Shown here in pieces: positions 2,240-49,598 of a stretch of DNA of 64,000 bases (positions within the stretch are counted from its first letter, which is position 1; the number at the start of each line of letters is the position of its first letter). Location: assembly GCA_964522435.1 (NCBI GenBank), contig CAZFUL010000001.1, positions 117,075-181,074 of the forward strand, written 5' to 3'. The notes beneath the pieces were generated by a model. That model did no database searches. It saw nothing but the letters and a program-made list of their open reading frames with translations, and was not told the DNA's origin. The position numbers were made by a program, and so were the translations under genes. Source of the stretch: an uncultured Gammaproteobacteria bacterium. Lineage in GTDB: Bacteria; Patescibacteriota; Patescibacteriia; Magasanikbacterales; UBA922.

Positions 2240-3610
2240 ATGCAAATTGGTCCGGTGTTTATTGATATGTCCTATCTGCAAGGTCTTTTGGATCGTGGCT
2301 TGTTTGGTATATTAGGCGAATTATTTATTCTTGGAGGATTTTTACTCTTTGTTTGGGTGTGTTTCTTTTTTGCTTTATCCTATTATCAAGAATATCGAGA
2401 AAATAAATTTACTGCAGATTGGCGATGGGTGGTATTAGCCGTAGACATTCCTCCGTTAAATGTACAAACACCCAAAGCCATTGAACAAATGTTTGCGCAC
2501 TTGGCGGGGGCATTTGATAAACCTGGAATAAAAGATAAGTTTCGTGGGGGCTATAAACAGCGCTGGTTTAGTTTTGAAATTATTAGTATCGAAGGCTATA
2601 TTCAATTTGTGATTCGCACAGAGGCTGCGTTTCAAAAATTGGTAGAAGCGGCATTATATGCCCAGTATCCTGATGCCGAAATTACAGAAGTAGAAGATTA
2701 TGTACAAGGATTACCAGATACCTTTCCAGATAAAACCTATGACATGTGGGCAGCTGACTTTGGTTTAGCCGAAAACGATGCCTTTCCTATCCGCAGTTAT
2801 CATGATTTTGAACATAGTATTTCTAAAGATACGGTGTTAAAAGACCCCATGGGAGCATTTTTAGAAAGTTTTAGCCATATTGGTCCAGGAGAACAAATGT
2901 GGTTTCAGATTATGATTGAGCCAATTGATAATGGCTGGAAAGATAAAGCAATTAAAAAAATTAAAGAACTTATTGGAGAAAAAGAAAAAGCAAAAACCAG
3001 TCCGCTTCAAAAATTATTAGATGTGCCTATTCAGACCGTTGGCTTATTAAGTGATCAGATTTACGGCGCTGTGGAGCGTGGTGGGGCAAAAGAAGAAAAA
3101 GGAGATAAAAATGAATTGCGCTATCTTACCCCAGGACAAAGTAAATTAGTAGAAGCCATGGAACAAAAAATTTCCATGATCGGGTTTAAAACAAAAATTC
3201 GCGGCGTGTATATTGCGCGTAAAGAAGTCTTTAAGCCAGAACGTGGCGTGCCTGCCCTTATTGGGGCAATGAATCAGTTTAATATTCCTACCTCCAATTC
3301 AATTGTGCCAAAATCAGGTGCGTCAAGTAATGAAAAAAAGACCCTGTTTATGATGGCCTATAAAAAGCGAAAATTAAAAATTGGTGCAAATCCATTTGTC
3401 TTGAATGTGGAAGAATTAGCAACCATTTGGCATTTCCCCATGTCTCATGTAAAAACGCCTATGGTGCAAAAAGTGGAAACCAAACAATCAGAGCCTCCTA
3501 TTGGTTTACCTATTGAGCGTGTTGATGCCCCAATTATTGCGGAAAAAAAGAAAAAAACAGAAAGTAGCACCGATGCCTTTGGCTACTCAAGTGATATGCA
3601 TTTTGGATAG
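2240..3610 (+). CDS. Hypothetical membrane-anchored protein (N-terminal TM helices, large soluble domain)
   Basis: 456-aa ORF with host-like AT-rich codon usage. No family recognised from sequence alone. Confidence 0.6.
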   Translation: MQIGPVFIDMSYLQGLLDRGLFGILGELFILGGFLLFVWVCFFFALSYYQEYRENKFTADWRWVVLAVDIPPLNVQTPKAIEQMFAHLAGAFDKPGIKDKFRGGYKQRWFSFEIISIEGYIQFVIRTEAAFQKLVEAALYAQYPDAEITEVEDYVQGLPDTFPDKTYDMWAADFGLAENDAFPIRSYHDFEHSISKDTVLKDPMGAFLESFSHIGPGEQMWFQIMIEPIDNGWKDKAIKKIKELIGEKEKAKTSPLQKLLDVPIQTVGLLSDQIYGAVERGGAKEEKGDKNELRYLTPGQSKLVEAMEQKISMIGFKTKIRGVYIARKEVFKPERGVPALIGAMNQFNIPTSNSIVPKSGASSNEKKTLFMMAYKKRKLKIGANPFVLNVEELATIWHFPMSHVKTPMVQKVETKQSEPPIGLPIERVDAPIIAEKKKKTESSTDAFGYSSDMHFG

Positions 3611-4988: not shown

Positions 4989-5051
4989 GGGGTTCTCTAC
5001 TTTATTAGTCTTTTTTTACTTATTTTAGCAAAATTTAATAATATATATCCC

Positions 5052-5079
5052 AAAAGCCTCTTGACAAAAGGCTTTTTTT
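5052..5079 (+). terminator. Hairpin aaaagcc(11 nt)ggctttt plus T-run after dus
   Basis: Seen in sequence. It overlaps the promoter below. Confidence 0.5.
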
Positions 5080-5089
5080 GTGCTATTAT
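5061..5089 (+). promoter_or_regulatory. Sigma70-like promoter TTGACA-17-TATTAT
   Basis: Perfect -35 TTGACA (5061-5066), 17-nt spacer and -10 TATTAT (5084-5089). It reads into GC-rich islet B and the ORF at 5790. Confidence 0.55.
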
Positions 5090-5255
5090 GTTTCGTTATC
5101 GTCGTATTTCATAACAGCAGCTATTGCCTGTTATTATGAAAACCGACGAGTCGTGTGTTACGACTTACGGTCCAGCGGCATTCCTGCCGCGAGCTGCTAT
5201 AACTGACCCAAGCAGTGTAAATAAATGGGTCCCCGTGGCATGAAGGAGAATACCC

Positions 5256-5516
5256 ATGCCCAATCCCGGTGAAACCCCCAGCACCCCTGCCACCACCTCC
5301 ATGGTGGCGCCCGTCCAGCCGGCCGCCGAGGTGCAGCCGGATCTGGCGTCTGTCGCCCCGGCCGAAGAGCCCCCCACCGTCACGGCGGTGGCCTCTGATA
5401 CCGACGGTAACGGGCTCACCGACCGCGTCGTCATGACCGGGGGGGGGATCATCCCCCTGGGAATCGCGGGAGGGGGGTCCCGTCCCGATCGTCCCCGGAT
5501 GCGCGGTAGCAACTAG
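5256..5516 (+). CDS. Possible small Pro/Ala/Gly-rich protein in a very GC-rich islet (uncertain coding)
   Basis: AAGGAG lies 8 nt upstream of the ATG. The region is over 70% GC and has long ORFs in several frames, so the coding call is weak. Confidence 0.2.
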   Translation: MPNPGETPSTPATTSMVAPVQPAAEVQPDLASVAPAEEPPTVTAVASDTDGNGLTDRVVMTGGGIIPLGIAGGGSRPDRPRMRGSN

Positions 5517-5789
5517 CCCCTCGGCGGGACCTCTTTATATGTACGCGTTCTGCGTATAAAGAGTTCATCTTCTGAACGCAGCACCTGGCCGGTCGCGCTT
5601 TTATAAGCGACCCTGCACAAGCGCTTGACTGTCATCCTCTGACATTCGCGCGACCGGCCCCACAAAAAAGTACATCAATAGTGGTGTGCTTTTTTGTTTT
5701 TATGAGGAATACACTGATATGTAACCAAATTGAATTAAAGGAAAAATAATGATAGTCTAACAAATGAAATTGTATTTAATCGTATTATT

Positions 5790-12638: not shown

Positions 12639-15466
<2,828 letters not shown>

Positions 15467-27383: not shown

Positions 27384-28127
27384 ATGACCATGCAACTGTT
27401 GGGTGTCTTTTTTGTTGGCCTCGCCGCGAGTTTTTTAAGCGGTATTGCGGGAGGTGGCGCTGGGCTTATTACCATTCCCTTATTAATATTTTTAGGAATT
27501 GATCCAAAAATTACCGCAGCAACAACTACCTTTGGGGGATTAGGATTGGGGATAGGCGCGTTGTTTCGCTTTCGTAAGGAAAAAAATTTACGAAAACAAT
27601 ATAGTAAACCTTTCACTCTTATTTCTATATTTGCCGGATTGTGTGGACCCTTTATATTATTTTTCTTAGAGAGTAGTTGGGTAAAAATCGTTGTGGGTTC
27701 TATTATATTACTTATTGTTCCTTTGTTTTTGTTAAAGAAAAAGATTGGAACAGAACAAAAAGAAACAAGTCAAAGAAAAAAAATTATTGGCTATCTCTTG
27801 TATGCGTTGCTGTTAACCTTGCAAGTGGCCTTTGGCTCTGGGATTGGCATTGCTATCATTTTTGTCTTGGTGGCATTTTTTGGGCTTACCTTAATAGAAA
27901 CAAGTGCAACATTACGGTTACCACAACTGGTTTCTTCTTTTATCTCTCTGTTTTTATATGGCTATCAAGGATTATTAGATTATCGTTATGGAATAGTGCT
28001 TATGCTTGCGATGATTTTGGGAGGGTATCTGGGTTCTCATGTGGCAATAAAAGCGGGTAATGCGGTTATTCGCTGGGTTTTTGCTGCTATGGCAGCGATC
28101 CTCGCGGTAATCTTGTTGATTCAATAA
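27384..28127 (+). CDS. TauE/SafE (TSUP) family membrane transporter
   Basis: GIAGGGAGLITIPLLIFLG repeat motif. Polytopic. Confidence 0.75.
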   Translation: MTMQLLGVFFVGLAASFLSGIAGGGAGLITIPLLIFLGIDPKITAATTTFGGLGLGIGALFRFRKEKNLRKQYSKPFTLISIFAGLCGPFILFFLESSWVKIVVGSIILLIVPLFLLKKKIGTEQKETSQRKKIIGYLLYALLLTLQVAFGSGIGIAIIFVLVAFFGLTLIETSATLRLPQLVSSFISLFLYGYQGLLDYRYGIVLMLAMILGGYLGSHVAIKAGNAVIRWVFAAMAAILAVILLIQ

Positions 28128-28131
28128 AACA

Positions 28132-28164
28132 AAAACCCTATACCGTTCTGGTACAGGGTTTTTG
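28132..28164 (+). terminator. Rho-independent terminator (ccctgtacc.../ggtacaggg + T-run)
   Basis: aaaaaccctataccgttctggtacagggttttt. Confidence 0.55.
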
Positions 28165-28238
28165 AATTGCTCCGACGGGGGTGGGGAACTGCCGAAGCAA
28201 TTCATCCGCGTCGTCGGGGCGGAACTCCTTGTTTGTCG

Positions 28239-28760
28239 TCAGGGGGTCCCTGTATTGTACGGGTCAAGGAAGATGAACCGTTCTTCTTTGGGATAGTACC
28301 CTGGGTATACCGTCCAGACCGTGAAGTGCCATTGCTGGTTGCGCTCTTTGCGCATCCGAACTTTCATGGTGAGTTGGGTAGTTTTTGGAGCCAGGATGAG
28401 CTCCTTGGGGAGGACGGGAATCCCGGATGACGGCCTTCTCAGCTGCTGTTGCAAGTATGGCTGGGTGGGGACACGGGTCACCCAGCCAATATGGCGGGGA
28501 AGACTCAGGGTGATCGAATGATCTTCTTTACCCCGTTCAATTGCGCTGCGCAGGGCCGCGCCCAAGTGTGCAGCAACCTCTTGGTCATCGACGCAGGCTT
28601 GCAGGTTTGGCCAGGCAGAAATATTTCCGGCCAGTGGAGCGCCTGCCAGACGGAAATGGTCAGTTTGTACCTGGACTATGGTCTCGTGGGGAAAGATGAC
28701 CTTGACCACCGGTGCGCCGTCCGGTCCCATAGGAAGGATCAGATATTTGGCGAAAAGCAT
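28239..28760 (-). CDS. Hypothetical protein (173 aa) in GC-rich islet C
   Basis: RBS aaggaa upstream of the ATG on the minus strand. GC about 55%. The + strand ORFs here are shadow ORFs. Confidence 0.45.
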   Translation of the reverse strand: MLFAKYLILPMGPDGAPVVKVIFPHETIVQVQTDHFRLAGAPLAGNISAWPNLQACVDDQEVAAHLGAALRSAIERGKEDHSITLSLPRHIGWVTRVPTQPYLQQQLRRPSSGIPVLPKELILAPKTTQLTMKVRMRKERNQQWHFTVWTVYPGYYPKEERFIFLDPYNTGTP

Positions 28761-28772
28761 GAACGTTTCCTT

Positions 28773-29375
28773 TCAGTTGTTGTGTTTTTTGTTCATGTGG
28801 CGAATTGCGATTGCCACACTGCCGTTGCCCATCACCCCGATGAGGATGGGGTGTACGAGGGATACCAGTTGTTGCTCTGGCTGCCAGTGGATGACCAGGT
28901 TCGTAGTCATGATCATATACGACACCACCGCAATGTACCAGGGCAAGATGTTTTCTTTGTTGCCTTTGAGTACACCGAGGACGGTGGGAATGAACGATAG
29001 CACATATACTGCTTGAAGCAGCAAGTTGGCCATTACATCATCACCGCTGGTACGCCAGTAGTAGACAATGACGCCGGCGATTGCCAGAATCATCCATTCT
29101 GTTGGCCCGATTTTGCTAAAGCGCTTGTTGAACGCTGCGTAGCCAAGGATCAAAAGCGATCCGAGGCATGCTGCGCCAGTTGCTGCCCAGCGGCTCAGGT
29201 CACCATCTACCACTTTGAAATAGGTGACTGAGTTGACCACATTGACGCTGCCCCAAATTGCCCAGGTTGCGGCGTTTGGGGTGATATTGCCCTTGATCAC
29301 GTAGTACAGGTACATGCTGAGCAAGAGTAGCACACCCGACATTGAAATGAGTGAAAGAATATCAATGAGCGCCAT
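28773..29375 (-). CDS. Hypothetical polytopic membrane protein (about 200 aa) in GC-rich islet C
   Basis: RBS aaggag 6 nt upstream of the internal ATG (MALIDIL...). The longer ORF to 29429 was rejected as an upstream extension. Confidence 0.45.
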   Translation of the reverse strand: MALIDILSLISMSGVLLLLSMYLYYVIKGNITPNAATWAIWGSVNVVNSVTYFKVVDGDLSRWAATGAACLGSLLILGYAAFNKRFSKIGPTEWMILAIAGVIVYYWRTSGDDVMANLLLQAVYVLSFIPTVLGVLKGNKENILPWYIAVVSYMIMTTNLVIHWQPEQQLVSLVHPILIGVMGNGSVAIAIRHMNKKHNN

Positions 29376-29427
29376 TGCAGGCTCCTTTGTCTGACGTTTT
29401 TCTTGGCAGAGACTAGAATAGAACATC

Positions 29428-30288
29428 ATGATTTTAATCAGTTGTCAATATAGCGTATGTATGGGAAAATATTCGTATATGCGTGATACCACACACAACA
29501 GAGCATGGGTACGAAACATCGGTATTGTCTGTTTTATTTTTATCCAATTCTTGGGAATTGCCATTAATCTTATAAAGCAGCAAGATTGTTATAAACAAGA
29601 GCAGTCCATAGAGCAACAGTTTTCCAGCAGGCAAGAAGGAGATGTTCGTGTATTAAAAGAAGATATGCTCAATCATTTTGATTGTGGCATGTCGTTTGGC
29701 GTGCCTGCGCCTATTGTCTATGTCAAAGATGATACAGGCAGTGTTGGGGTATTGCCTCAAAGTATTGTGTTTAATATTGTGCTCTATGCTGCCGTTTTTT
29801 TTGCGGTTATGCGTGGGTATGCCTTGTTCAAACAACAGCGCTATACGCGTGTAGGTGTGGAAAGCATATTGTGTATTGTGGGATTGTTTATTGCTGCTAT
29901 ATTATTGCAATTATCGTTTCGGTATAGTGGGCTTATGTATACCGGAGGGCCTGTAATACGATTTCCTTCGTTGATACCATCAACACAGTCGTTTGTGGAT
30001 ATAGGGGCTGAGTATGTGTTTTATGTTCTTACTATGCTTGCCGCAGGATTTTTTTCTGTATATACCTGGTATGGTTATGCGGCAATTATTTTTTTATATC
30101 TTGTATTATTTGGAATCGTTGTATACCGGATACAAAAAATATATATACCACTCTCATATAAAAAATTGTTGACCTGGGGAATTGTTGGATTTATTTTTTT
30201 CTATCTTTTTATGTCGTATAGTGCGTTTATTACGCAAGGGGTGGTTGATCTGAATTGTTTACATAACAATAGTGGTTGTGACGGCTAG
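29428..30288 (+). CDS. Hypothetical polytopic membrane protein
   Basis: ATG ORF with multiple hydrophobic segments. Start uncertain. Confidence 0.5.
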   Translation: MILISCQYSVCMGKYSYMRDTTHNRAWVRNIGIVCFIFIQFLGIAINLIKQQDCYKQEQSIEQQFSSRQEGDVRVLKEDMLNHFDCGMSFGVPAPIVYVKDDTGSVGVLPQSIVFNIVLYAAVFFAVMRGYALFKQQRYTRVGVESILCIVGLFIAAILLQLSFRYSGLMYTGGPVIRFPSLIPSTQSFVDIGAEYVFYVLTMLAAGFFSVYTWYGYAAIIFLYLVLFGIVVYRIQKIYIPLSYKKLLTWGIVGFIFFYLFMSYSAFITQGVVDLNCLHNNSGCDG

Positions 30289-31702: not shown

Positions 31703-31785
31703 TTATTTATACACAAGACAAGGTTTGACAAACATCTATTTAGGGCGTAGGGTAGAAACATCGTATGAAAAGATACTCAGTAAAT

Positions 31786-31876
31786 AATCATCGTCGTTAC
31801 AGCGACCTCGGATAACTTCCGCTAGGAATTGTTATCATTGAGGTCGCAGCAATCCCGCTATAATCGGGATTTTTTA
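31786..31876 (+). ncRNA. Candidate small structured RNA, unit 1 of a tandem paralogous pair (conserved 5' box, long hairpin, intrinsic terminator)
   Basis: aatcatcgtcgt box, then hairpin gacctcggataac...gttatcattgaggtc, then atcccg-ctataa-tcgggat plus T6. Confidence 0.4.
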
Positions 31877-31916
31877 TTTATTTATGAATAAGTGATATAT
31901 GAATTGTTTTGTGTGT

Positions 31917-32010
31917 AATCATCGTCGTCGCGTGGACCTCCGATAACATTCGTTAGGTATTGTTATCGTTGAGGTCCGCTATATCGCCACATTGGGCGAT
32001 ATTTTTTTTC
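31917..32010 (+). ncRNA. Candidate small structured RNA, unit 2 (structure conserved with sequence changes)
   Basis: aatcatcgtcgt box, then hairpin ggacctccgataac...gttatcgttgaggtcc, then atatcgcc-cacatt-gggcgatat plus T8. Confidence 0.4.
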
Positions 32011-32134
32011 CGTACATTATGGGAAGAGAAGGACAGACGATAGCAATATCTGATAGTAGCCTCTTCTCATAATCAGTAGCAATGCTGTTGCTGAACGTGG
32101 GAAGAGTAACGCTGTTGTATAGGAGGACGTTGTC

Positions 32135-32950
32135 ATGGCACCATACTTTTCTTGGCTGGTAGCGTCTGGAGTTATTGAACGAACAATGCCCGATGGAGGG
32201 GTGGTTCATGTTTCCACCTTGCCTGACGCAGCGGTGGCAGCTGCGGGCTGGTGGGGGACGGAAAATCTGCGTCCCGAGTATTGCTTGAGCGGCGGCTGCT
32301 TGTTTGATGCGCGTTGGCAGCTGCAGTTTCCTGCACAAAACAAAGGACACCAAGGCGCTGTTCGTACCTTGTCCTTGCCGCGTGAGCGCGATGATGCGTA
32401 TGCGCGTTTGAAGAAAGGACAAACGCCACTTGCCCTGCACCTGCCGAAAGGGCCTGGCGTGTATCAGCAGACGCTCATTCGCTGGCAAGCAGCGGTGTTT
32501 CGTCGCTTGCAGCCCACACAGATTCTGTACCATCTTCCGACCGATGAATATCGTGTCTACATTCAAGAGATGGAACAACATCTGGGCTATGCCGTTCCTG
32601 CTGCCTACACACAGCTTGACCAGCTCGCTGTCTCTATTCGTGCGCTTATGGTGCGGGAGTTTGGGGCTGCTCTCATGGCACGTGTTCGCTTCGTGCGTCC
32701 TATGCACACGCATGGAGTGAAAGATACGACACAGTCCTACCTGCATCCCTACTTGTTTCCGGAGTTGTATGGGATCACTCCTGCCAATACCGTTGGTGTG
32801 GAAGATCTTGTTGAACTCCGTCTTGCCTACGAAGCATGGCGCATGCGCGGACACCAGATTTCGGTGTACGCAGCTGCCCTTGCCCTGCCTCCTCCCTACG
32901 CAGATAAAACGCTGCGGCCTGGGGAATTCACGACCGTTGAGCTGATGTGA
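32135..32950 (+). CDS. Hypothetical protein (271 aa) in GC-rich islet D, strong SD
   Basis: taggagga lies 8 nt upstream of the ATG. GC is well above the flanks. The antisense ORF 31979-32854 is judged a shadow. Confidence 0.5.
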   Translation: MAPYFSWLVASGVIERTMPDGGVVHVSTLPDAAVAAAGWWGTENLRPEYCLSGGCLFDARWQLQFPAQNKGHQGAVRTLSLPRERDDAYARLKKGQTPLALHLPKGPGVYQQTLIRWQAAVFRRLQPTQILYHLPTDEYRVYIQEMEQHLGYAVPAAYTQLDQLAVSIRALMVREFGAALMARVRFVRPMHTHGVKDTTQSYLHPYLFPELYGITPANTVGVEDLVELRLAYEAWRMRGHQISVYAAALALPPPYADKTLRPGEFTTVELM

Positions 32951-33011
32951 TATACACCTCAGCTCCGGTCACCATCCCATAAATAGTTATTTTTTATTAT
33001 ACTATATCCAT

Positions 33012-34004
33012 ATGTTCTATCTCTCAAAAAAAAATCTTAATGCATTACGCATCGGGAGTTTATGTTGTGCGACGGGTGGTGGTTTATCGTATCGTGATCA
33101 TGGAAAAGCCTTTGATGCTGCGTTATCAAAAAAATCAAAGATTCTCTGTAAAGAAATAGCCGAATTTCACGCAACTGACTATCTTGCGTCTATCTATGGT
33201 GTTGGAGATCCATCACAAGTAAAAGGAGATTTTGTTTCTGTGATTAAGACAGGAGTAAAAAAGTATACACAACTCACTGGGATTACACCGAAAGGAATTA
33301 TTCCTGGAGAAATTGGTGCGGAAGGCTTAGCATTTCAGGCTGCTAGCTATCTTAATTTGCCAGTCGTTGATTCTGATTTAGTTGGTGGAAGGGCTGCTCC
33401 AGAAATTCAAATGGATGTATTTTCTGTGTACGATCTTCCACTTACTCCATTATTAGCGGTGAGTATGAATGGAAAAGAGTTATTTCTCAACGGTGCATTT
33501 GGCGCAAAAGAAATTGAAGGATTGATTCGTTTATTTTTTAAAAATAATGGCAGTAATGGATTACTTATTGGTTATCCTATACAAGCCAAACAGTATCAAC
33601 AATATGGAATGAGTGGAACGATTTCTCGGGCAATTGCTATTGGCGACTGTTTGTTAAAAAAGGATTTGCCGGGAGTATTAGAACATACTCAAGGAAAGAT
33701 TCTTGGTGAAGAAACAATAGACGCCGTCTCGCTCTCTAGTCAGGACGGATTTTTGCAAGGATGGCTTTCTCTTGGTGATATGAGTGTCTTGGTAAAAAAT
33801 GAATATATTCTGGTAAAGAAAAAAAATAAGATGCTTTGCCAGGCACCAGAGAATATTATGCTACTTGATAAAGACTTGTTTCCGATTCACAGCACACAGG
33901 TACAACAATATGCAGGAAAAAAAGTATCTGTGTTCGTTATTCCTGGACAAGGATATTGGAAAGTACAACGAGCAAAAAAATTATGGGATTCAGCAAAAAA
34001 ATAA
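33012..34004 (+). CDS. DUF917-family protein (hydantoinase-like fold)
   Basis: Glycine-rich ATGGGLSY plus overall family resemblance. Moderate confidence. Confidence 0.55.
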   Translation: MFYLSKKNLNALRIGSLCCATGGGLSYRDHGKAFDAALSKKSKILCKEIAEFHATDYLASIYGVGDPSQVKGDFVSVIKTGVKKYTQLTGITPKGIIPGEIGAEGLAFQAASYLNLPVVDSDLVGGRAAPEIQMDVFSVYDLPLTPLLAVSMNGKELFLNGAFGAKEIEGLIRLFFKNNGSNGLLIGYPIQAKQYQQYGMSGTISRAIAIGDCLLKKDLPGVLEHTQGKILGEETIDAVSLSSQDGFLQGWLSLGDMSVLVKNEYILVKKKNKMLCQAPENIMLLDKDLFPIHSTQVQQYAGKKVSVFVIPGQGYWKVQRAKKLWDSAKK

Positions 34005-34221
34005 CGTAGGTAGCCAAATATTTGTCGAAATGAACAAGCCCACTGCATTCTTCCCGTAGAATGAGTGGGCTTTTTTGTTTTTGGAAAGGTTATCCACAAA
34101 GTGGAGAACAACTACTTGCTCGGGGAAGATAAGTGGTATAAAATGGATATATGTGGGGAGAAGTGGGGAAAAAATAAGTAACGTGCTTGTCTACTTAACC
34201 CCCAATCTTGTTCAAACCACT

Positions 34222-49463: not shown

Positions 49464-49564
49464 CGTAGCGACCCTCCATTTGTGAAGACTCAAAGGCAAG
49501 CGCGAGTATAAACGCTTCCAATCCCCATCCTAAAATTATTTTGAAAAAAAGTAGTTTGAGGATA

Positions 49565-49598
49565 AAAAATCACCGTTAAAACGGTGGTTTTTTATTTC
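49565..49598 (+). terminator. Bidirectional rho-independent terminator (caccgtt-aaaa-cggtg flanked by A- and T-runs)
   Basis: Seen in sequence. Confidence 0.6.

Follow-up and report, generated by a model that had tools for sequence, protein, structure and literature searches.

Patescibacteria (candidate phyla radiation [CPR]) are reduced, largely uncultured symbionts in which most lineage-specific genes have no assigned function and regulation is little known. In one 64,000-nt stretch of such a genome (contig CAZFUL010000001.1; here called the window), a 271-aa gene, referred to below as gene X, is preceded by two tandem leader units and followed by a gene encoding a DUF917/S-Me-THD-like protein. 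Homologous loci are denoted by L and a number and proteins of the gene X family by P and a number. The operon anatomy is well supported, and the analyses below establish the gene, its family and predicted fold, its pairing with DUF917, the leader open reading frames (ORFs) and terminators, and an alternative pairing of the leader in relatives. Probably, these parts constitute a conserved module (a promoter, one or two leader ORFs each with a terminator, gene X, and the DUF917 gene) that is regulated by attenuation and acts on an amino-acid-derived substrate. The locus contains the following features.

31725 to 31753, plus strand: putative leader promoter, inferred from the sequence, with a -35 box TTGACA (31725 to 31730), a 17-nt spacer, and a -10 box TAGGGT (31748 to 31753)
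31765 to 31815, plus strand: leader ORF 1, 16 codons (MKRYSVNNHRRYSDLG and a stop), with H-R-R at residues 9 to 11
31801 to 31848, plus strand: hairpin P1 of unit 1, the 5' arm of which is formed by the last codons and TAA stop of leader ORF 1
31851 to 31877, plus strand: intrinsic terminator 1, AATCCCG-ctataat-CGGGATT and a T run
31899 to 31946, plus strand: leader ORF 2, 15 codons (MNCFVCNHRRRVDLR and a stop)
31932 to 31979, plus strand: hairpin P1' of unit 2, which includes the TAA stop of leader ORF 2
31981 to 32010, plus strand: intrinsic terminator 2, ATATCGCC-acattg-GGCGATAT and T8
32019 to 32112, plus strand: structured segment of the 5' untranslated region (5'-UTR), as predicted from the minimum-free-energy fold of the whole leader and the sequence
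32120 to 32127, plus strand: Shine-Dalgarno (SD) sequence TAGGAGGA, 7 nt ahead of the gene X ATG
32135 to 32950, plus strand: gene X, 271 aa, of an unnamed family, with a predicted HUP/class-I aminoacyl-tRNA synthetase (aaRS)-like alpha/beta fold and N-terminal beta strands
31979 to 32854, minus strand: antisense ORF of 291 aa, a shadow and not a gene
32998 to 33003: -10-like TATACT before the partner gene
33012 to 34004, plus strand: partner gene, 330 aa, DUF917/S-Me-THD-like (Pfam PF06032 and PF20906)
34028 to 34080, plus strand: terminator-like hairpin that closes the X-DUF917 pair

Gene X is a genuine protein gene. The original prediction had drawn attention to a 271-aa ORF with a strong SD and to contrasts with the backbone in composition and ribosome-binding-site strength, all of which are borne out quantitatively: TAGGAGGA lies 7 nt before the ATG, and the gene has a GC content of 0.556 compared with 0.403 for the rest of the window. 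GC at third codon positions (GC3) is 0.544 compared with a mean of 0.320 (standard deviation, 0.051) for 36 credible backbone genes (z = 4.4). In 200-nt windows, GC climbs from about 0.44 to 0.57 to 0.60 at 32100, ranges from 0.52 to 0.60 across 32100 to 32999, and is back at 0.42 at 32900 to 33099, with values of about 0.33 to 0.44 on both flanks; these edges match the ends of the gene X ORF, and at the 1-kb scale the region is one of two peaks of 0.53 GC in a window of 0.40. Among the 31 Leu codons, TTA does not occur (35% in the backbone) and CTG makes up 35% (backbone, 8%), while AGT and AGA are both at 0% (backbone, 34% and 14%, respectively); amino acid usage is raised for Ala, Pro, and Arg and lowered for Lys, Asn, and Ile. 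AGGAGG is found upstream of gene X only, the other genes among the 40 in the window having chance matches of at most 4 nt, and the X homologues have SDs of the GGAGG type in all cases except L004, which has GGAG only.

RNA genes of AT-rich genomes typically combine high GC with long ORFs on both strands, as seen here. A structured noncoding RNA or an antisense gene nevertheless has next to no probability as the source of this stretch. The ORF has no Rfam match at an E value of ≤1, and the fold z-score for RNA structure inside the gene is only -1.74; since mRNA folding is unremarkable and Rfam is empty within the ORF, the region is protein coding and not an RNA gene. Furthermore, the sense protein is conserved and is modeled at a mean predicted local distance difference test (pLDDT) score of 92.7. 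The open antisense frame is explained by codon usage, because gene X uses no TTA, CTA, or TCA in its sense codons, which leaves the codon-aligned antisense frame open by construction. Codon-shuffled versions of gene X are equally open on that strand, which is closed in seven of the eight homologues of the first-found loci; it is fully open in L004 alone, as is the shuffled null for that locus. The 291-aa antisense ORF can thus be ruled out as a gene by the codon-usage null and by its closure in most homologues, as the original prediction, which took it for a shadow, had it. Taken together, the Rfam, folding, conservation, and codon-usage results effectively refute an embedded RNA or antisense gene.

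Gene X had been described as belonging to no named family, and library and profile searches agree: it matched none of the Pfam, PHROGs, NCBIfam, and PADLOC models or PDB sequences, and neither it nor the DUF917 gene matched the defense-system and phage libraries. Rather than being a common housekeeping protein, the alternative that the prediction had named, it belongs to an unnamed family. Among 5.8 billion proteins searched, eight relatives were found, with 30 to 41% identity and lengths of 235 to 282 aa, which align end to end with gene X and share 22 invariant columns with it. A profile search of 1.84 billion representatives extended the family to 95 proteins, 62 of them below 1e-30, and a second, word-indexed protein search added no further members. 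Across 64 members, C55, Y110, P135, and Y139 are invariant and Y4, G53, W61, P104, P189, Y206, E223, D224, E227, and P254 are nearly so. The most conserved motif, GxC(L/I)(F/W)DARW, holds the invariant Cys and lies within the N-terminal 85 residues. All four of the loci in named genomes come from Patescibacteria metagenome-assembled genomes (MAGs), namely, those of a member of the Magasanikbacteria, a member of the Saccharibacteria, a member of the Parcubacteria, and an unclassified Patescibacteria bacterium.

A few family members depart from this pattern. The N-terminal parts of the fusion members P0032, P0091, and P0098 contain no Pfam domain. P0032 (619 aa) and P0031 (337 aa) have long N-terminal extensions, and in both of them CC replaces the single conserved Cys; in P0032, there are in addition a membrane-like segment and a repeat of about 50 residues present in three near-identical copies. 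These two proteins may derive from non-Patescibacteria or eukaryote-like sources.

An AlphaFold2 model of X, built from an alignment of nine sequences, has a mean pLDDT of 92.7 and a predicted template modeling score of 0.89. It begins with beta strands over about 78 residues and continues as a Rossmann-like alpha/beta fold, and on the basis of this model X is placed in the HUP class, nearest the branch of class-Ic aaRSs and cyclodipeptide synthases. In a Foldseek search, the top matches by probability or TM-score are class-Ic aaRSs and cyclodipeptide synthases, none of them significant (nothing below 1e-3 in the PDB). A search of PDB sequences with the 64-member profile returned only coiled-coil noise, and the viral fold library returned nothing significant. 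When the N-terminal 85 residues are modeled alone, the pLDDT is 52, too poor for searching, and for this reason we take this part as integral to the fold and not as an independent domain. The predicted structure thus makes X an alpha/beta enzyme of the HUP class, with class-Ic aaRSs and cyclodipeptide synthases as its closest structural relatives. The earlier statement that X has no recognizable domain therefore stands for the sequence libraries (Pfam, PHROGs, NCBIfam, PADLOC, and PDB) but not for the predicted fold.

The gene downstream of X matches PF06032 (E value, 3.9e-19) and PF20906 (4.5e-19) with 69.7 and 69.0 bits, respectively, against gathering cutoffs of 27. In contrast, it reaches only 44.5 and 36.6 bits against the NCBIfam models NF058532 and NF058529, for which the cutoffs are 450 and 440; being far below these equivalog cutoffs, it is not an orthologue of the characterized thiohydantoin desulfurases. 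Among the loci with enough downstream sequence, a DUF917 gene lies directly downstream of X in the window and in L001, L002, L004, L010 to L014, L019, L020, L022 to L028, L033, and L034, the exceptions being the L021 group and L037. In the homologous loci, it is on the same strand as X, is separated from it by about 80 to 280 nt, and shows 41 to 56% identity. The other neighbors differ between X loci (in the window, they are msrB, mscL, one unknown gene, and mraZ/rsmH). Pairwise identities for X and DUF917 correlate across 12 loci (r = 0.86), which indicates that the two diverge together. We found no description of a DUF917 gene paired with an X-like gene in the literature searched. The hairpin units and gene X do occur together in one module, as had been proposed, but its further member at 33012 to 34004, with its backbone-like composition, had gone unseen.

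Other genes are found near the pair in some loci. A HisRS-like class-II aaRS of about 410 aa (tRNA-synt_2b plus HGTP_anticodon) directly follows DUF917 in L033 (4442 to 5671), and HisRS-like class-II aaRS genes are located a few genes from DUF917 in L001 (12969 to 14216) and L002 (15935 to 17167). In the L010 lineage, a DIT1/PvcA-like (PF05141) ORF follows DUF917 (L010, 8444 to 8872).

Upstream of gene X, two units (31785 to 31877 and 31916 to 32010) share 82% identity over 61 nt and have no further copies in the window. RNAfold assigns unit 1 a dG of -38.1 kcal/mol, and the changes between the hairpins of units 1 and 2 preserve stem pairing. These had been described as tandem small RNA (sRNA)-like units adjoining gene X; the two units exist, but they are leader-peptide ORFs with terminators and not sRNA genes. 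Equivalents consisting of a promoter, a tiny ORF, and a terminator are located upstream of homologues elsewhere, which answers affirmatively whether homologues co-occur with the hairpin units. In the X homologues, the ORF has 20 to 36 codons and the arrangement is often duplicated; between promoter and structural gene, the window has two putative short ORFs, and equivalents are present in more than 15 loci. The -10 box of the leader promoter in the window is weak, and a consensus scan made no call there. However, a promoter in the same place, with a TTGACA-type -35 box, a 17-nt spacer, and a TAnnnT -10 box, is found in L001, L002, L004, L010 to L014, L034, and L035 (the -35 box being TTGACT in L012 and TTGACC in L034).

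The leader peptides share a motif. H-R-[R/W] occurs in 14 leader ORFs from 11 loci, with the first Arg at residues 9 to 13 in 12 of the 14, and L001, L014, L013, L004, L011, L002, L012, L022, and L035 have H-R-R at the same distance from the start as in leader ORF 1. The variants are as follows.

L001: NNHRRSW
L014: NNHRRNWH
L013: HWLRRR and HWGRR
L004 (both units) and L035: HRW
L011: FRRWH and SRRW
L002: FRRNWRH
L012: NHRH
L022: NRRH

Since the Arg codon varies among CGT, CGC, CGA, AGA, and AGG, the motif is conserved at the amino acid level. Other loci have leaders of different classes. Those of class 2 (L010 and L023 to L026) read M(Y/H)KEIxKEIKGLILFILLKVGSRP with four TTG Leu codons, and those of class 3 (L019 and L020) have the aromatic-rich pattern MxxTxSRM(F/Y)x(F/Y)FxFKTAKGWLLxYFKN. 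Past the TAA stops of both window leaders (31813 to 31863 and from 31944 onward), the same frame reads LGIVI(I/V)EV, which is similar to the G-x-F-x-VFEI tails seen in the longer leaders of L001 and L013a. This similarity may lie at the RNA level, because L014 reads the corresponding GTTTTT..GTATT.GAAAT in another frame. The window leader peptides look truncated relative to those of their relatives.

The 5'-UTR segment between the second terminator and gene X may have a role of its own. Its pyrimidine stretch CCTCTTCTC (about 32060 to 32068) is able to pair with either copy of GGGAAGAG (about 32021 and about 32101). The two copies of GGGAAGAG at 32019 to 32112 flank CCTCTTCTC and an inner hairpin, and a 17-codon ORF is located at 32019 to 32072. 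Pairing of CCTCTTCTC with the SD could mask the latter, as a translational switch or anti-SD element.

In relatives, the leaders can adopt an alternative pairing in which the 5' arm of the terminator pairs instead with a segment near the leader stop (the 2:3 duplex). In 11 units of homologous loci (L004a, L010, L011a and L011b, L012, L013a and L013b, L019, L020, L022, and L026), the dG of this duplex is about equal to or stronger than that of the terminator, and only 0 or 1 of 200 shuffles reach it. The duplex ends no farther than about 50 nt before or 20 nt after the leader stop, and for most units the distance is about 25 nt or less. We found no match to Rfam leader families, the best being Trp_leader at 19.6 bits (E value, 0.53; cutoff, 41), and Rfam searches of the window, the leader, and eight homologous loci yielded tRNAs and subthreshold noise only. 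Weak, subthreshold Phe_leader/Leu_leader-like matches are present in intergenic regions other than the X leaders, in L004 at 3208 to 3307 (32.3 bits; E value, 0.15) and in the window at 49511 to 49596 (29.9 bits; E value, 0.011), a hint that leader-peptide attenuators may have further uses in these genomes.

The leader ORFs, which share a conserved internal motif, lie immediately ahead of two enzyme genes, and are often duplicated in tandem, might alternatively encode precursor peptides of the ribosomally synthesized and posttranslationally modified peptide (RiPP) type, with X and DUF917 as the modifying enzymes and the terminators setting a high precursor:enzyme ratio. The window terminators look constitutive and would give abundant short transcripts, and the predicted fold of X is used by enzymes that handle activated amino acids. 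Against this, closely related X/DUF917 pairs have leaders without a shared motif (classes 2 and 3), the antiterminator strand overlies the ORF end in 11 units, which is a regulatory design, some of the peptides have only 15 to 20 residues, and no gene for a transporter, protease, recognition domain, or immunity function is conserved in the neighborhood. We therefore regard this role for the peptides as improbable.

In relatives, the attenuation of the X-DUF917 operon would operate through the ribosome, as in the classical four-segment attenuator. One that reaches the end of the leader ORF would cover the 5' strand of the antiterminator, so that the terminator forms and transcription stops. One that is held at the H-R-R/W codons would allow the antiterminator to form and X and DUF917 to be transcribed. 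The hold could result from scarce charged tRNA or from ligand-dependent arrest by the nascent peptide of the type known for SpeFL. The tandem Arg codons of class 1, the four TTG Leu codons of class 2, and the Phe, Tyr, and Trp codons of class 3 fit the reading as hungry codons, in which case the operon would respond to amino acid starvation. Ligand-dependent arrest fits as well, by analogy, since class 1 leaders resemble SpeFL in motif, in position, and, for some, in tails.

As for the enzymes, X would activate or transfer an aminoacyl group via ATP or aminoacyl-tRNA, possibly through the invariant Cys55, and ring opening or closure of a cyclic amide of the hydantoin or diketopiperazine type would fall to the hydantoinase-like partner. 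Such chemistry is suggested by the coupling of a hydantoinase-like enzyme to an aaRS- and cyclodipeptide-synthase-like protein in which one Cys is invariant and Tyr and Glu residues are conserved, and the substrate of the pair is, we infer, a compound derived from an amino acid. Cyclodipeptide-oxidase clusters without a cyclodipeptide synthase are enriched for DUF917 genes (10.1101/2023.09.25.559410); this and the HisRS-like neighbor are circumstantially in line with cyclic-amide chemistry. The most likely purpose would be amino acid salvage in an auxotrophic patescibacterium, which is the most economical guess because the proposed attenuation would turn on expression when ribosomes falter at particular codons. 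A more specific version, in which X is a new branch of the aaRSs and cyclodipeptide synthases with Cys replacing Ser as the aminoacyl carrier, makes or recycles a cyclic amino acid derivative together with DUF917, and is governed by SpeFL-like H-R-R/W sensors that read a basic amino acid or tRNA charge, is speculative and on balance unlikely.

Several observations weigh against an attenuated, amino-acid-related operon as the explanation. In the window units, no antiterminator is detectable (94 of 200 and 156 of 200 shuffles are as good); they have instead a stable hairpin that includes the stop codon. The window terminators still form when the ribosome footprint is masked, so that the attenuation switch is demonstrated only in relatives; in the window, the switch has either been lost or acts in some other way, unless production of the short transcripts is itself what matters. 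The leaders belong to three or more unrelated classes (H-R-R/W, KEIKGLILFILLKVGSRP, and SRMFxFFxFKTAKGWLL), and no single sensed ligand is implied. The DUF917 gene of the window has its own -10-like box and may consequently be transcribed independently. X is also found without DUF917, in the L021 group (L021 and L029 to L032) and in L037. The soil-metagenome homologue in L021 (2983 to 3807) is AT rich (GC, 0.40) within GC-rich flanks and has no DUF917 within 1.1 kb downstream; this contrast, without DUF917, suggests that X can move alone into non-Patescibacteria-like genomes. In the distant member L037, X lies behind an ABC-ATPase gene and beside a polar amino acid transporter. The kinship of X with known aminoacyl enzymes is not visible in its sequence either. 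Aligned by hhalign to the cyclodipeptide synthase YvmC (its identity as a synthase was verified against PDB 3oqh), the 64-member X alignment gives a probability of 0.5%, with only the first Rossmann helix in the aligned stretch. In this nonsignificant local alignment, the position of the catalytic Ser of the synthases (GxS-P, following the first Rossmann strand) is, tentatively, hydrophobic in X: all nine sequences have L, V, I, or Y there, ahead of P104. The HIGH and KMSKS signatures of class I aaRSs are not present; the consensus at their topological equivalents is PxxPGxYH and PHPYxxK (PKGPGVYQ and PPPYADK in the window protein).

The GC excess of gene X raises the separate matter of its origin. 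A recent horizontal acquisition of X from a donor with higher GC and SD use, by xenologous replacement within a leader-DUF917 locus that is itself older, would make the GC and SD contrast a simple scar of transfer; this is possible but somewhat doubtful. The foreign codon usage (GC3 z = 4.4), the sole strong SD among 40 genes, and the backbone-like composition of the DUF917 partner (GC3, 0.258) speak for it, as does the presence of another GC-rich islet gene with an AAGGAG SD (28773 to 29374, minus strand). X of the L021 soil group, AT rich in GC-rich flanks and without DUF917, shows that X moves, and the nearest relatives differ for the two window genes (L011 for X and L022 for DUF917). However, X has a GC3 at least equal to that of DUF917 in 17 of 17 loci and exceeds its surroundings in GC in 14 of 17, a pattern that points to a property of the family and not to 17 separate transfers; with the excess over the partner present in all 17 loci compared, a one-off insertion is insufficient. 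Moreover, X and DUF917 codiverge overall (r = 0.86), no donor above 41% identity is known, and the borders are without repeats or mobility genes. The most extreme split is seen in L028 (1052 to 2861), where X has a GC of 0.543 (GC3, 0.584), DUF917 one of 0.274 (GC3, 0.176), and the rest one of 0.316; compared with L010 and L026, X of this locus is only 55% identical in protein sequence while DUF917 is 72 to 80% identical. The excess could come from repeated replacement by GC-richer alleles or from selection on the composition of X. Such an acquisition concerns origin and is compatible with the favored functional explanation, an attenuation-regulated operon.

The suggestion that gene X and the hairpin units form a mobile module found no support. 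At gene X, we found no flanking direct or inverted repeats, integrase, or transposase, and there is no tRNA within 13 kb. The GC excess could not be traced to an RNA structure, an antisense gene, or a feature of a mobile element. An assembly chimera or contamination in the MAG might be considered, given that the sharp edges in composition coincide with the gene X ORF, that the source is a single contig, and that the collection holds no other copy of the X protein. This is very unlikely, because both junctions reproduce an order (H-R-R leader ORF, X, and DUF917) that is present in about 15 independent contigs from different studies.

The window contains two further GC-rich islets. The first (28001 to 29429; GC, 0.52) contains two minus-strand ORFs with a GC3 of 0.63 (z of about 6), one at 28239 to 28760 (173 aa) and one at 28773 to 29374/29429, encoding a membrane protein of about 200 aa; searches of Pfam, NCBIfam, and PADLOC gave no matches. 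The latter gene is preceded by TTGACA-17-TATTCT and an AAGGAG SD and is, like X, SD led in an SD-less backbone. The second (5051 to 5750; GC, 0.55) has no plus-strand ORF of ≥100 aa and no Rfam match at an E value of ≤0.03; it contains a Pro/Ala/Thr-rich 86-aa ORF (5256 to 5516, plus strand) with a 115-aa antisense partner. The backbone genes, judged by 40 starts in the window, have essentially no SD sequences, and many have a TATACT/TATAAT-like box 7 to 10 nt before the ATG (e.g., those at 12639, 33012, 44070, and 48256), which suggests widespread leaderless mRNAs.

The two-enzyme module recurs in every named Patescibacteria genome found with it, which suggests a specific metabolic capability, probably related to amino acids. 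Its leaders represent an apparently unreported case of leader-peptide attenuation in Patescibacteria, with a conserved peptide motif (a search of the literature library for such attenuation in this group returned no paper), and X appears, from its model, to be a new structural relative of aaRSs and cyclodipeptide synthases. A GC islet with sRNA-like hairpins can thus represent a regulated operon instead of a mobile element. While the combination, the X family, the leader motif, and the host group are described nowhere in the libraries searched, the components, namely, a HUP-fold enzyme, a DUF917 protein, and leader-peptide attenuation, are of known kinds.

Compared with the cyclodipeptide synthases (AlbC, YvmC, and Rv2275) and the class-Ic aaRSs (TrpRS and TyrRS), X shows 6 to 13% identity. 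Like the synthases, it has a class-Ic aaRS-like Rossmann fold of about 220 to 250 aa without an anticodon domain; unlike them, it has about 78 additional N-terminal beta-strand residues, and it has no match to the Pfam CDPS model at an E value of ≤0.1. In contrast to class I aaRSs, its model has no anticodon-binding domain, and the 271 aa end with the Rossmann fold. On sequence grounds, X is a member of neither group. The partner gene shares both of its Pfam domains with the DUF917/S-Me-THD family of thiohydantoin desulfurases and predicted hydantoinase-like proteins.

In the homologous loci, the leader resembles the classical attenuators (trpL, hisL, pheL, and leuL) in having a promoter-near short ORF, an intrinsic terminator ahead of the structural genes, and an antiterminator that is mutually exclusive with it and has its 5' strand in the ORF end. 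Tandem control codons are also found: RR or RRR, four Leu codons in class 2, and a Phe/Tyr-rich run in class 3. However, classical leaders repeat one amino acid, whereas the motif here is made up of His, Arg, and Trp; the genes under control do not form a biosynthetic operon, no antiterminator is found in the window copy, and the hosts are Patescibacteria.

A second likeness is to SpeFL, the ornithine-sensing leader peptide upstream of speF, which has the motif HIRRXXH at residues 10 to 16, with R12 and R13 strictly conserved, and a Phe-rich tail (bioRxiv 10.1101/604074). The exact HIRRXXH is not present here, with no Ile between His and Arg-Arg, and the distance from RR to the stop is 4 to 19 residues compared with 21 in SpeFL. 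SpeFL acts through Rho-dependent termination in gammaproteobacteria, whereas the terminators here are intrinsic and the window peptides have 15 to 16 residues. The C-terminal part of SpeFL is aromatic and hydrophobic, whereas Phe-rich tails are found here in some loci only. We treat the resemblance as a lead and not as a test. It extends to the short leader ORF, to H-R-R at residues 9 to 12, with H-R-R or R-R-x-(x)-H/W located at residues 8 to 15, to the His or Trp that often follows H-R-R by 2 to 4 residues, and, in the L001, L013, and L014 leaders of 28 to 30 residues, to the Phe-rich tail.

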